From NCBI GenBank assembly GCA_964016885.1, contig OZ024746.1:57722001-57786000 (forward strand): a stretch of 64,000 nt of DNA. The letters are read 5' to 3'. Position 1 is the stretch's first letter; every line of letters begins with the position of its first letter. This stretch comes from Eledone cirrhosa (lineage: Eukaryota). A program made the position numbers and the translations under genes. Below are positions 18,392 through 63,683 of this stretch, one piece after another. Below the pieces are notes generated by a model, which saw nothing but the letters and a program-made list of their open reading frames with translations, was not told the origin of the DNA and did not search any database.

Positions 18392-20953
18392 TACGATATT
18401 AAATAAATGAAAACTATATTTATAAAACCATATTTATTTCATTATATATATTTCAGGGATATCATATTAACAATATGTTATGCCTTCTTCAGACAAAATA
18501 CAATATAGACAGTTTTATAAATAAATTGATTTGACATACCGTTCAACATCGACTTGTATTTGGAAAGTTGATTTGGCAGTGAAAAATTGTAAACAGAAAG
18601 AAAGAAAGAAAGAAGGAAAGAAAGAAAGAAAGAAAATGAAGAAAAAGAAGAAATGCATGCAACTAAATAGAGAGATGGAAAGATAGATAAAGAGAAGAAC
18701 TTCATGTAAAGAAACAGAGAGAGATATATAGAGAGAGGAAATAGATAGAGATATATATATAGAGAGAAAAGTAGGTAGTTGAACATCCGTTGAATGACGT
18801 ATCAATGATACATTTATTTATTTATTTATTTATTAGCTCTAGTATTAATGTAAGGGAGATATATGTGGTTAGGAGAGAAACCAGCCGTTATATAGAGAGA
18901 AAAAAATGAAAAGTAATCAGACATAGGCGAGGCAGAATTTAAAAACCCTATGTTTCAATGTAGAAATATTAGTTTGTATAAAAAACAGGCACTATAATGT
19001 AAATATCAGTATTCATGAATGAGACACGTATCTATAATGTGTGAAAAGTAATGATCTTATGTCTAGTTTTAAAAATTCATATGTTTATATGATAACTACA
19101 AACATAGATGTGAATTTACGTGATCAACTGCAAACTCCTATTTCACACGGAGAACATTCTCATTGTGCTATAAAAATTTAAGTATACATATATGTGTATA
19201 TATACACATATATATAGAGTCTATATTAATTTTAACAATACTATTCTTGTCTTTACTCTACATGATTATCTATCAAGCAGAAATAGAGAACAGATTTCAA
19301 TATATTAATAAAAATATCAGAAACAAAAACAAAAAATAATAATAAATAAATAAAACAGAAAACTAAAAAATATTACATATTAAAAATAAAAATATTAAAA
19401 ATATTAAAAAATATTAAAATAATAAAAATAAAAACATAGTATGCCACGCAAATCGACCACAAAGATCAACCCTTCAAAATGAATTGACAATATATTGCCA
19501 AGTTCATTATAAGCATCAGAGTCGAAAACAGATAAAACTAAAAATTATTTACCAAATCACGTCTAGCAGAAATCATTTCAAAAGTTTAGGATACCCATTT
19601 GGTCTACATATGTTCTTATATTTAATATAGAAGTTTATCTAGTGTAACATTTATTCGATATATTTGGAGCATCAACTTTTAGGGTAGTTTAATTTTTCAT
19701 GAAGAATGTTTAAAATAAAAATAAAAAGAAGAATAAAAAGAAGAAATCGAAAGATTTATCGGCTAGTTTCATAAATAATTACAAATCAAACTAAATATAT
19801 TACATTTTAAATTCAAATTTATATTTAAAAGTTGAGTTCAATCTATGTTTGCAGCAACTGAATAAATGTGTCCGTAGATTAAGGGAATTTTTAGATTTTA
19901 GTATAAAGAATATCTCCTCCGCGCAGAGGTCACATGTCTCAGAGGATGAATTAAAAGGAATCCCTCTTGAGACTATATTCCAAGCCGTCGAATATCTAAC
20001 GTTATCTTGCCTAAGTTGCCAGAGTACGCCTGATAGTGCTGTTGAAGATTTTTTGCTTGGATCTGTGAAAGAATTCTTGTGGTTATTATAGCACAATGAG
20101 AATGTTCTCCGTGTGAAATAGGAGTTTGCAGAGTTGATCACGTAAATTCACATCGATGTTTGTAGTTATCATATAAACATATGAATTTTTAAAACTAGAC
20201 ATAAGATCATTACTTTTCACACATTATAGATACGTGTCTCATTCATGAATACTGATATTTACATTATAGTGCCTGTTTTTTATACGAACTAATATTTCTA
20301 CATTGAAACATAGGGTTTTTAAATTCTGCCTCGCCTATGTCTGGTTACTTTTCATTTTTTTCTCTCTATATAACGGCTGGTTTCTCTCCTAACCACATAT
20401 ATCTCCCTTACATTAATACTAGAGCTAAATAAATAAATAAATAAATAAATGTATCATTGATACGTCATTCAACGGATGTTCAACTACCTACTTTTCTCTA
20501 TATATATCTATCTCTATCTATTTCCTCTCTCTATATATCTCTCTCTGTTTCTTTACATGAAGTTCTTCTCTTTATCTATCTTTCCATCTCTCTATTTAGT
20601 TGCATGCATTTCTTCTTTTTATTCATTTTCTTTCTTTCTTTCCTTCTTTCTTTCTTTCTTTCTGTTTACAATTTTTCACTGCCAAATCAACTTTCCAAAT
20701 ACAAGTCGATGTTGAACGGTATGTCAAATCTATTTATTTATAAAACTGTCTATATTGTATTTTGTCTGAAGAAGGCATAACATATTGTTAATATGATATC
20801 CCTGAAATATATATAATGAAATAAATATGGTTTTATAAATATAGTTTCCATTTATTTAATATCGTAAATATACTCCAAATACTTGTTGAGTGCTGTTATA
20901 TCAGTTATAAATATTTACTAGTTGTAACCCAACAATTTAAATATAACTTTCCA
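18392..20953 (-). mobile_element. Truncated PLE (family C): GIY-YIG 3' fragment, 3' UTR and a ~780-bp inverted repeat
   Basis: Arms 18392-19171 and 20087-20865. Frame 19800-~20090 reads YNNHKNSF...CDLCAEEIFFIL...LNLR...CCKH. HHRs at 18437-18498 (-) and 20760-20821 (+). Confidence 0.85.
20760..20821 (+). ncRNA. Type I HHR (family C); mirror copy at 18437-18498 (-)
   Basis: UUUUGU CUGAAGA A GG..CAUAUU-GUU-AAUAUG..CC GAAA UAUAUA UA/AUGAAA. Confidence 0.8.
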
Positions 20954-20973
20954 TATATATATATATATATATA

Positions 20974-21555
20974 TGGTCGCTGCCAACTCGTTTTCGAGTA
21001 CAGCCACTAATTTATATCCATGTAGGAGAACCCTACAGATAAGCTGAACGAGTGTGACTTTCTAGTCCAGCCAGCGACTTGAAAACTCTGGTACAAACAC
21101 TACATTTGTGACAATTATTGAAACGTATTGCTGGACCCATGGTACCATGTGACGATAAGTGCAATGAGATCTCCAGATATAAAGCAATGCCTGTGCCGTG
21201 AAGCTTTTATAGTGAGCAAAGGCACTGCACAAAGCCTGTCCAAGTCTCTTGATGATATCTACCAAAAAGAAGAACAAATCAACATCATTGGATATCATCA
21301 GGGTTGCAGGTGTTATATCAGAGGTTTCCTTGTCCTAGAATTAAGTCATCCCTCCAGGTGATTTTGGATGGCCATTGACTCTTAAGAGCTCCTTTGCCCT
21401 TTGACAGGTTTTGTTTTTAGTCCTGCAGGATGTCCAGTCACCCTCCTCACGAAGAAACCTTGGTGGGGTTGCCAGTTTAGTCGCCAACGACTCGACCATG
21501 AGACATGTTGTACTGGGATACATGTTATCAGTAGCACCAACTGGTGACCTGACAT
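20974..21555 (-). mobile_element. ~600-bp non-autonomous element, probably RTE-derived (5' end joined to 3' end)
   Basis: Second copy at 24201-24810 with the same ends. The 3' part has a C2H2 remnant C..VCTRVFKSLAGLESHTRS like RTE/BovB C-termini. Confidence 0.5.
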
Positions 21556-61755: not shown

Positions 61756-62424
61756 CTACATTTTAAATTTATATTTATATTTAAACGTTGAGTTCAATCT
61801 ATGCCTGCAGCAACTGAATAAATTGCTCCTTAGATTAAGGGAATTTTTGGATTTTAATATAAAGAATATCTCCTCCACACAGAGATCACATGTCTCAGAT
61901 GAGGAATTAAAAGGAATCCCTCTTGAGACAATATTCCAAAACATCGAACACCCAACATTATCACGTTTAAGTTGCCAGAGTAAGCTTGATAGCGAAGTTG
62001 AAGATTTTTTGTTTGGATCTGTGAAAGAATTCTTATGATTATTGAAGCGAAGTTTGAATTCTGTCGAGGTAGAACCAACATAGTTGAAAGAATTTAAGTT
62101 AGTTTTAACATTACAATTGTATATTATATTTTTAACTAAGCAATTGTTATTTAACGGACATTTAGATTTATTTCTACAGTTACAGTTATTTAATTGAATA
62201 TTGTTTGGGTTATTATTGGTATTTTGGTTAGGTTTTAAATTCCTATTATTAATTCTGTTAATATTTTGTGCTAAATTTTTGGTGGACGAGTAAGTTAATT
62301 TTATAGTATGTCTATTAAAAATTGAGAGATATTTATGTGTTCTAGGGAAGCGTTTGTCAAGAGCATTAAAGAATAGTTTAGCAATGTGGGTTTTAATATT
62401 TAGTGAGAAAGGGGGGGGGGGCAA
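61756..62424 (-). pseudogene. PLE C-terminal linker + GIY-YIG endonuclease fragment
   Basis: PPFSLNIKTHIAK.F, CNCRNKSKCPLNNNCLVKNIIY, YVGSTSTEFKLRFNNH, CDLC.EE, LNLR..CCRH; from memory this resembles the Hydra clade of PLEs. Confidence 0.85.
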
Positions 62425-63683
62425 ACTATATTATATTTCTAGTTCTATTTCTTTTCCGGCTTTTGGAATTATTGTAATGTTTTCTATTATAGTTGTTAAT
62501 GTTGTTACCGTAATTAAAATTGTTATTATTTTGGTACTATCGTATTTCTACTCCAAAAACTTGTCGAGTGCTTTATATCGGTTATAAAATATTTACTTGT
62601 TGTAAACCAACAATTTTAAATAAAACTTTTGCATATATACACACACATATATATATATATATATATATATATATATATATATATATACATATATGGCTTC
62701 TTTCTACAATACTTTCTATACCTTTCATTTATATATATATATATATATATATATATATATATAAATATAAATATTATATATATATATAACTTCTCCGTAT
62801 AAGACAAGAGCTGAAAAATATCTGTTAACATGTTAAAATATCCCACACACAAGTACAGATACATTCCTACTGACCATCCCTCTACCACGAATTACTCTGC
62901 TACACACACACATACACACACACACACACACACACACACACACACACACACACACTTGTCTTAATAGGCATTTGAACTGTCAACAGGCGGCGGTTCGCAC
63001 ACATCCCTGCTGACGATTATCACAACAACGAACCTCTTTACTACTACTACACACGCACACACACACACATATTTGTCATGAAAGACTTATTTTTCAGTGA
63101 CTTCTCAATCAGCCGAGACAAACCTACATTTGGCGCAAAATCAATTTTTAACATTCTCATGACCTCTACCGACCAATCAAAATTGTTTTGACCACAAGAA
63201 TTTTTTCATACATCTGGAGCCACTTTTTTCACATAAAACATGTAGAATTTCCCAAACTAATCAGATTAGAGCAAACATCACGGGTGCTCTATCTCAAAAT
63301 TATTTTTGAAAAGCATTAGAAATGCGCAACCGATAAAAGTTAAAACCAGAACTGAATACTATCCAAAACTATTACTAATTTCTACTTATTCCTAACTCAA
63401 CTATTTTTCACTCGGAACAATTTGTCAGCATTTTCTTTTACTTTTACCAATATATATATATATATATATTCATATATATATATATATATATATATATATA
63501 TATATATATATAAATGAAAGGTATAGAAAGTATTGTAGCAAGAAGCAATATATATATATATATATACATAATTGAAAAATTTGAACAGGGACAAAACAGA
63601 GAGGCAGTACAACGAATGTTTATTAATTTCACGCTCTGGAGAGTGGGGTGTTGGTATATATGTATATATATATATATATATCA

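Follow-up and report, generated by a model that had tools for sequence, protein, structure and literature searches.

Across a 64,000-nt stretch of the Eledone cirrhosa genome (GenBank assembly GCA_964016885.1, contig OZ024746.1, positions 57,722,001 to 57,786,000; hereafter the window, whose own numbering is used below), inverted repeats of one kind recur: two copies of an element lie head to head, and one of them runs further at its 3' end than the other. Their shape recalls the insertions of Penelope-like elements (PLEs), whose integration is called undefined in the accessible text of Craig et al. (PMC8557442), including the reason for the inverted copies and for the one-sided tail. The locus thus raises the question of how such a pair acquires two different, precisely placed ends. 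We find that nearly every pair in a genome-wide sample combines one short and one long end, and that the pairs are probably products of twin priming, in which both ends of a cut (TA)n target prime reverse transcription of PLE RNA.

Paired arms with two fixed 3' ends

The window is AT-rich and densely filled with (TA)n tracts. Sequence reading and self-BLAST gave the same layout for all eight insertions listed by the initial annotation, namely two arms that meet head to head, point their 3' ends outward and are bordered by (TA)n tracts (Table 1). The coordinate pairs and the asymmetry of a short and a long arm that it had described were all confirmed, as was its remark that the inverted part at 62535 is almost tail only. 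We denote by S the fixed inner 3' stop of the tail-less arm and by T the fixed stop beyond the tail. In family A the S end reads ...TTTAATATCG followed by TA (the left arm of A1 stops at ...ATATCG before (TA)n), and the T end lies 88 nt past S, at ...AACTTTCCA followed by TA. Arm-to-arm identity by self-BLAST is 97.9% in A1, 97.7% in family C and 93.8% in family B.

The window's own 3.0-Gb assembly was searched for families A, F, D and C using queries of 120-200 nt taken just upstream of S; since the tail is not in the query, the search is biased neither for nor against tails. The sample comprised 30 loci per family and 35 further stretches, with the best 40 of 359-2026 candidates scored per family. 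All sampled ends fell at S or T (36/36 in family D and 34/34 in family C), with no scatter, and in family A it is visible letter for letter that each locus ends at either ...ATATCGT or ...AACTTTCCA before (TA)n.

Of the 69 head-to-head pairs whose two outer ends could both be read, 67 were S/T, one was S/S and one T/T. Family A contributed 32 S/T pairs and one S/S (no T/T); family F, 13 S/T and one T/T (no S/S); family D, in which the collinearity of the long arms was checked, 16 S/T; and family C, six S/T, the last two families with neither S/S nor T/T. Were each end picked without regard to the other, no more than 50% of the pairs would be S/T; the pairing of one short with one long arm thus exceeds chance (67/69 against at most half). 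Loci whose outer end was truncated or lay beyond the fetched DNA (L076a, L095, L172, L174, L180, L169b, L110 and L120) were left out, as was L103, whose two T ends are not adjacent. The test set in the initial annotation, 3' end positions by orientation over genome copies, therefore returned two sharp positions per family; the patterns named there as speaking against the idea, continuous scatter or frequent long/long and short/short pairs, were not seen.

A genome search with family E returned no match; as the search skips very common words, this is uninformative on copy number. Logan contigs of about 60 nt (four runs under one species label) contain the element ends at high depth with many alternative joints, and are too short to judge any single locus.

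Table 1. Arms and related element ends in the window, with positions and strands
Feature	Position	Strand	Remarks
A1, S-ended copy	18392..20082	-	tail-less, 5'-truncated, 1.69 kb; 3' end adjoins (TA)n at 18392
A1, T-ended inverted arm	20083..20953	+	body 20083-20865; 88-nt tail 20866-20953, then (TA)n
A2, S-ended arm	24965..25455	-	near-perfect palindrome; self-BLAST
A2, T-ended arm	25456..26030	+	tail about 25943-26030, right arm only
A3, S-ended copy	60134..62534	-	2.4 kb, diverged family A subfamily; C-terminal nuclease open reading frame (ORF) 61756-62430, minus strand
A3, partner arm	62535..62633	+	9 nt of body (tactatcgt), rest tail
Family B, S-ended arm	7477..8493	-	ends ...caattttc before (TA)n
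Family B, T-ended arm	8930..9987	+	39-nt tail 9949-9987; interval 8494-8929 between arms
Family C, S-ended arm	26060..26314	-	255 nt; hammerhead-like core CTGAAGA..GAAAC with AGTACT loop
Family C, T-ended copy	26315..30908	+	about 1.7 kb of element plus nested long interspersed element (LINE) of about 2.9 kb; tail 30840-30908, about 66 nt
Family D, S-ended arm	52738..52855	-	short; sequence reading
Family D, T-ended copy	52856..54085	+	about 135-nt tail from near 53951
Family E, S-ended arm	49082..49250	-	hairpin insertion; sequence reading
Family E, T-ended arm	49253..49511	+	tail 49420-49511, about 92 nt
Family F, S-ended arm	59045..59247	-	rearranged variant; sequence reading
Family F, T-ended arm	59253..59522	+	tail from about 59454, about 66 nt
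Family G (related), extra tailed 3' end	31790..31896 (approximate)	+	tail box
Family G type, extra arm	49545..49633 (approximate)	-	almost tail only; between (TA)n tracts

The roles of the arms in family A had to be revised. The unique interior of A1 (19177-20082) is part of the left, tail-less, minus-strand copy, because the junction rc(ref1)/ref907 (rc, reverse complement) is common to eight other loci, in which the A1-type interior is contiguous with a tail-less or a tailed arm in exactly the same orientation. The nuclease ORF of A3 is likewise on the minus strand and points to the S end. It follows that the long copy of family A is usually the tail-less one, and that the tailed arm is short, inverted and upstream. 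The tailed arm as the main copy was accordingly rejected, and of the family A layout first proposed the asymmetry stands while the assignment of the arms is corrected.

Impure (TA)n arrays at 56134-57349 (about 1.2 kb) and 59558-60134 (about 0.6 kb) are landing pads, and dominate inverted-repeat scans of the window.

Tails and their common box

The tails span 39 nt (family B) to about 135 nt (family D). A box, ACTC(C/T)...GAGT(G/A/T), opens the tails of families A, C, D, E and F and of three further ends in the window, at a position 1-9 nt after S; the families, taken as unrelated in the initial annotation, thus have a tail module in common. At S itself, TA-rich microhomology is present in families A, D, E and F. 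On folding, the minimum free energy of the tails is mostly like that of shuffled sequences (z -0.5 to -1.6; family B, z -3.2). The 5' box folds only into a stem of 4-5 bp, and as the box is conserved in sequence, covariation gives that stem no support. Another hairpin, placed 7-22 nt before T, reached p<=0.06 against mononucleotide shuffles in five of eight tails, which is suggestive only.

About 65 nt 5' of S in family C, a descriptor search located CTGAAGA-N12-GAAAC, flanked by AGCTTC/GAAGCT and with a loop of AGTACT; by its sequence this is a hammerhead-like core of the PLE style. The same descriptor had no match in families A, B, D, E and F. Across the window, no Rfam family, hammerhead included, reached its gathering threshold, and a relaxed Rfam search (E<=1) of loci L061, L088 and L139 returned no hammerhead, its only matches being (TA)n-driven microRNA look-alikes and one tRNA-like match. 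The latter (L061:1033-1097, minus strand; 34.8 bits against a gathering threshold of 29) lies about 230 nt outside a family A insertion and may be a tRNA gene or a tRNA-derived short interspersed element (SINE).

At two family F loci, L101 and L084, which have the same flank, the F tail stands directly before a different tail-like module (...AGCTCC...GTTGAGCGCT...) in place of (TA)n. This may reflect read-through into the tail of a neighbouring element, or priming from it.

Centres of the pairs and arms made of tail

In contrast to their identical outer ends, no two of 15 family A pairs have the same sequence at the centre junction, so that the pairs arise anew at each insertion and are not copied as hairpin units. 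The centres of this family cluster about 184 nt from S, beside a (CTTT)n tract, and the arms meet with an overlap of 0-7 nt or with a few filler bases.

T arms are commonly reduced to the tail or a piece of it (A3, L010, L062, L071, L077 and L122). In a sample obtained with a tail query, six of 30 loci (L038, L042, L044, L045, L048 and L049) match only from query position 23-24; in five of the six the tail stops just 3' of the box and adjoins the inverted body, and L045 keeps the box upstream and has an internal deletion. The family A tail-only query returned mainly diverged subfamilies, so that this sample is not unbiased and served for examples only. We count tail-only and partial-tail arms as a sign of obstruction at S or at the box.

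Two family A loci have unusual forms. At L014/L015 (G000:C6:74994660-74995047) the S end finishes with a 13-nt sequence in duplicate (TATTTAATATCGT twice) ahead of (TA)n; this form, seen in one of about 36 family A insertions, has the look of re-priming or realignment at S. At L008/L009 (G000:C9:48238884-48240180 and beyond) a family A hairpin and its flanks occur three times with a 968-nt period, the insertion having been duplicated in tandem as part of a larger segment.

Protein and class of the elements

The 3.4-kb genome copy of family A at L061 contains an open frame of 587 aa. A database search returned 621 homologues of this ORF, of about 700-800 aa and 35-45% identity, the best named of which is annotated as a hypothetical protein of a cephalopod. 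Searched with the ORF and with a 30-sequence profile, neither Pfam, RVT_1 included, nor the PDB gave a sequence match. Its language-model neighbours carry RVT_1 and GIY-YIG, and PF01541 is present in 21-47% of the members of the neighbour clusters. An AlphaFold model (predicted local distance difference test score, pLDDT, 79.7), compared with the PDB by Foldseek, matched the reverse transcriptases (RTs) of DRT2, a retron and DRT9, with TERT at rank 9 (E 4e-8), and the RT motifs F..DI..Y.SI, TMGS.D.A and GLYRDD are conserved across 30 homologues. The modelled structure thus has the RT/telomerase-like fold of an RT.

The 30-sequence alignment also conserves a C-terminal pattern, iiY..V..(8)..Y.G.T...FK.Ry.nH ... 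C.LC..E ... lN.r...C.H, which resembles the GIY-YIG signature, so that the C-terminal nuclease is putatively of the GIY-YIG type. Several finer features allow a comparison within the PLEs. The frame upstream of the stop in L061 reads KSDKTNNLYGV, with DKT in place of DKG; the linker is CxCX5C (CNCr....CPl...C); C.LC..E gives a CxxC before the conserved E, and N.r..l.s.C.H a CxH after the conserved N; and no conserved Cys lies between iiY and Y.G.T, so that there is no CCHH in the endonuclease (EN) core. These features, together with (TA)n targets, are those listed for the Hydra clade of C-terminal EN+ PLEs in the accessible text of PMC8557442, which adds a length under 3 kb and canonical hammerheads. 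Unlike that clade as there described, family A has arms of up to 3.4 kb that are still 5'-truncated, and the 3.4 kb sampled, beyond which the 5' end lies, contain no hammerhead core. Family A therefore carries motifs of the Hydra clade, from which its length and the missing canonical hammerhead in the sampled part set it apart. Its layout is that of a PLE: a 5'-truncated copy sits inverted at the 5' end, and only one end bears a tail.

Family C is a non-coding element of about 1.7 kb. An 838-aa ORF on the minus strand (26783-29299, within 26315-30583) encodes the C-terminal part of an apurinic/apyrimidinic endonuclease followed by RVT_1 (E 3e-32). It was rejected as the family's own gene in favour of a nested LINE, given this endonuclease/RT layout; other family C loci (e.g., L155) have the same layout without the LINE, the flanking segments being about 680 nt apart.

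A proposed twin-priming model and its alternatives

We consider each inverted pair to be, with good probability, the result of one insertion in which both 3'-OH ends of a cut (TA)n tract prime on PLE RNA, one at S and the other at T. Twin priming had been put forward in the initial annotation; it is supported by the end positions, by their pairing and by published PLE biochemistry, and the priming itself is deduced from the end positions. Because the 3' ends of the arms point outward, the antisense complementary DNA (cDNA) on each side is continuous with the target strand that supplies the 3'-OH, which is most simply read as synthesis primed from the two ends of the break. One end would start at the internal site S, 1-9 nt upstream of the box, and the other at the RNA 3' end beyond the tail, T. 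Both cDNAs would grow inward, to be joined by a template jump that leaves the short overlaps or filler bases seen at the centres. By analogy with the two in vitro start sites of the Poseidon PLE, S and T may be regarded as initiation sites.

The strict S/T pairing suggests that S and T each become available a single time, the simplest arrangement being one RNA whose tail spans the break. That both ends use one RNA, with the tail bridging the break and each site usable once, is in our estimate an evenly balanced proposition. A T-primed polymerase that stops at the box or at S would leave tail-only or partial-tail arms; one that displaces the S-primed cDNA would recopy the body and produce the inverted duplication; and equal reach could come from a common stall point or from the RNA end. 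The inner ends look coupled in 17 of 67 pairs, whose two arms reach one template position, which varies between pairs (for example d320/323, d1210/1199 and d825/853), and we count this in favour of the model. In a more specific version, which we advance tentatively and at somewhat less than even chances, one RNA would hold both (TA)n ends, with a structured tail of some 40-135 nt between them, and this one geometry would yield all PLE shapes: tail-only arms, hairpins and extended inverted copies, with single-arm insertions where only one end succeeds. Such a bridge would resemble telomerase-like primer positioning next to a template-boundary hairpin.

A number of observations weigh against twin priming as set out here. 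The S arm reaches further in 33 of 67 pairs, the T arm in 17, and the two are equal within about 30 nt in the remaining 17. A skew is present in family A only (S longer in 16 pairs, T in 2, equal in 14), and a leader-follower rule, by which the tail-less arm is always at least as long, was rejected as true of family A alone. Single-arm insertions, with (TA)n at the 5' junction, occur with either end type: S-ended at L063 and L065 and T-ended at L067 in family A, T-ended at L082 in family F, and S-ended at L173, L175, L177 and L179 in family D. The S/S exception, L012b, is an older mini-hairpin, and in the T/T exception, L101, the left tail is followed by the second tail-like module described above. 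Because the tail module is common to several families, these are not independent witnesses. The sample leans to young copies, its classes were read by eye from BLAST coordinates, and the pair loci were read from assembled sequence alone. S could alternatively be a termination or cleavage site. Finally, the two strands show no difference of start site in vitro (PMC11167929), so that the exclusivity would have to act per molecule.

The same reach data bear on the alternatives. Self-priming, in which one cDNA or an antisense transcript folds back and is copied into a palindrome, the tail difference coming from its resolution, was proposed for rotifer PLEs from junction palindromes (accessible text of PMC3846280). 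The 17 pairs of equal arms, with centre loops of 0-20 nt, would suit such a snap-back, as would the turn-around hot spot of family A next to (CTTT)n. However, in the other 50 of the 67 pairs one arm outreaches its partner, sometimes the S arm and sometimes the T arm. If a T-primed cDNA snapped back, the tail-less arm could not be the further-reaching one, as it is in 33 pairs, including the 2.4 kb facing a tail-only arm in A3; an S-primed cDNA that snapped back could not create the tail; and the S/T exclusivity is left without a reason, all of which makes self-priming quite unlikely here. The freedom of either arm to be the longer (33 against 17), and the single-arm insertions with either end, would be accommodated if twin priming used two RNAs held by a dimeric protein, the first nick using a protein-positioned S and the second annealing to (UA)n at the RNA 3' end; a dimer has been predicted for the Poseidon protein (PMC11167929). 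Yet equal reach at many template positions is unexpected for independent templates, and a symmetric dimer offers no reason for exclusivity; we hold this version to be unlikely. Arm similarity cannot separate the one-RNA from the two-RNA model, because the families are too uniform: the distance between arms is no smaller within pairs than between pairs, and some arms are shorter than the compared window.

Three further readings are, taken together, highly improbable: two independent, opposite insertions into the same (TA)n tract, transposition of complete hairpin units, and artefacts of assembly. (TA)n is strongly preferred as a target and some tracts have taken in more than one element (at L012, for example, 30 nt separate two hairpins), but the inner junctions of the pairs are without (TA)n, the arms adjoin with 0-9 nt between them, and independent insertions would not explain the S/T exclusivity. 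Constant outer ends with variable centres are the reverse of what 5' truncation of a transposing hairpin would give. Palindromes are hard to assemble, as the available text of PMC8557442 points out, whereas here each side has its own unique flank and the tails are asymmetric, which an artefact of fold-back reads would not be. The regularity itself is real and cleanly reproducible in a known kind of element, and twin priming, though inferred, is its best-supported reading.

Comparison with known systems

EN-bearing PLEs are known to make complex insertions with an inverted 5'-truncated copy and an optional one-sided tail, according to the accessible text of Arkhipova et al. 2013 (PMC3846280) and Craig et al. 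2021 (PMC8557442). The insertions described here are like them in the head-to-head inverted copy, the 5' truncation, the tail at one end of the unit and the AT-rich or (TA)n bias. They differ from the PLE insertions described in that text in having tails of 39-135 nt, against 30-40 nt, and in a tail that opens with a box conserved across families. The combination of a short and a long end, termed 'often' or 'optional' in the portions of the PLE literature available, is here counted (67/69). Target-site duplications, in turn, are unreadable inside (TA)n, unlike those of described PLE insertions. The same accessible text offers self-priming as the only mechanism proposed for PLE inversion (PMC3846280).

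The closest biochemical counterpart is the Poseidon PLE protein of Anolis (Frangieh et al. 2024, PMC11167929), by which both target strands are cut and then extended in vitro. It uses two RT start sites that bound the tail, with no strand preference, and inverted copies are not addressed in that work. As in Poseidon, two fixed positions bound the tail in E. cirrhosa. In Poseidon the start sites are within the ORF, where a hammerhead adjoins them, and have no homology to the target (PMC11167929), whereas here the sites are at the end of a long 3' untranslated region and S is in a TA-rich patch that could pair with a (TA)n primer. A literature search, with supplements outside its reach, found no publication that, by title or abstract, treats twin priming in PLE integration, nor mechanistic work later than PMC11167929.

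The arms in most pairs overlap, the same region being copied twice, and the second site is fixed for each family; in both respects the pairs are unlike L1 insertions. In L1 twin priming, reportedly described by Ostertag and Kazazian in 2001, both target 3' ends are said to prime cDNA, giving an inversion with 3' ends outward and a microhomology junction; the second site is said to be arbitrary, and the two segments to be adjacent parts of the RNA that are not duplicated. The geometry of L1 is found here in the tail-only class alone.

Already in print, then, are the architecture with its 'optional' tail at one end, the bias toward (TA)n and the existence of two start sites. New against the papers searched are the measured near-exclusivity of S and T, tails that reach 135 nt and carry a box common to several families, and an explicit twin-priming model for PLE inversions.

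Other repeats

Several further repeats were noted in the window and in the sampled loci. A GC-rich block at 34450-38604 (GC 0.43-0.55 against about 30% around it) has ORFs with Exo_endo_phos (36277-36924) and RVT_1 (37684-38604), and is probably another LINE. A repeat of about 185 nt, 85-96% identical, occurs in at least seven copies and in both orientations (16236-16421, 32765-32949, 40156-40321, 41620-41813, 43245-43433, 47216-47400 and 57966-58154), and may be a SINE-like family. Near the two ends of the window, 181-473 and 63686-63979 form an inverted repeat of about 295 nt with 93% identity, each beside (TA)n; these are probably two copies of another (TA)n-targeting element. A hairpin-shaped repeat (...ggtcatgttgccaataagaaacacacg...) stands beside (TA)n in several unrelated loci (L067:4450-4600, L117 and the right flank of L088), which suggests yet another family of the same habit.

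Implications for PLE integration

The genome of E. cirrhosa holds thousands of very young copies of these elements, with 359-2026 candidates per family at first look. With a near-absolute rule and base-precise junctions, a feature of PLE insertions previously drawn as a cartoon becomes a quantitative constraint. The rule argues against self-priming as a general route, ties the shape of genomic insertions to the start sites seen in vitro, and predicts that the exclusivity of the two sites operates per molecule. For annotation, it means that such palindromes are by-products of insertion, and not fold-back transposons or miniature inverted-repeat transposable elements.

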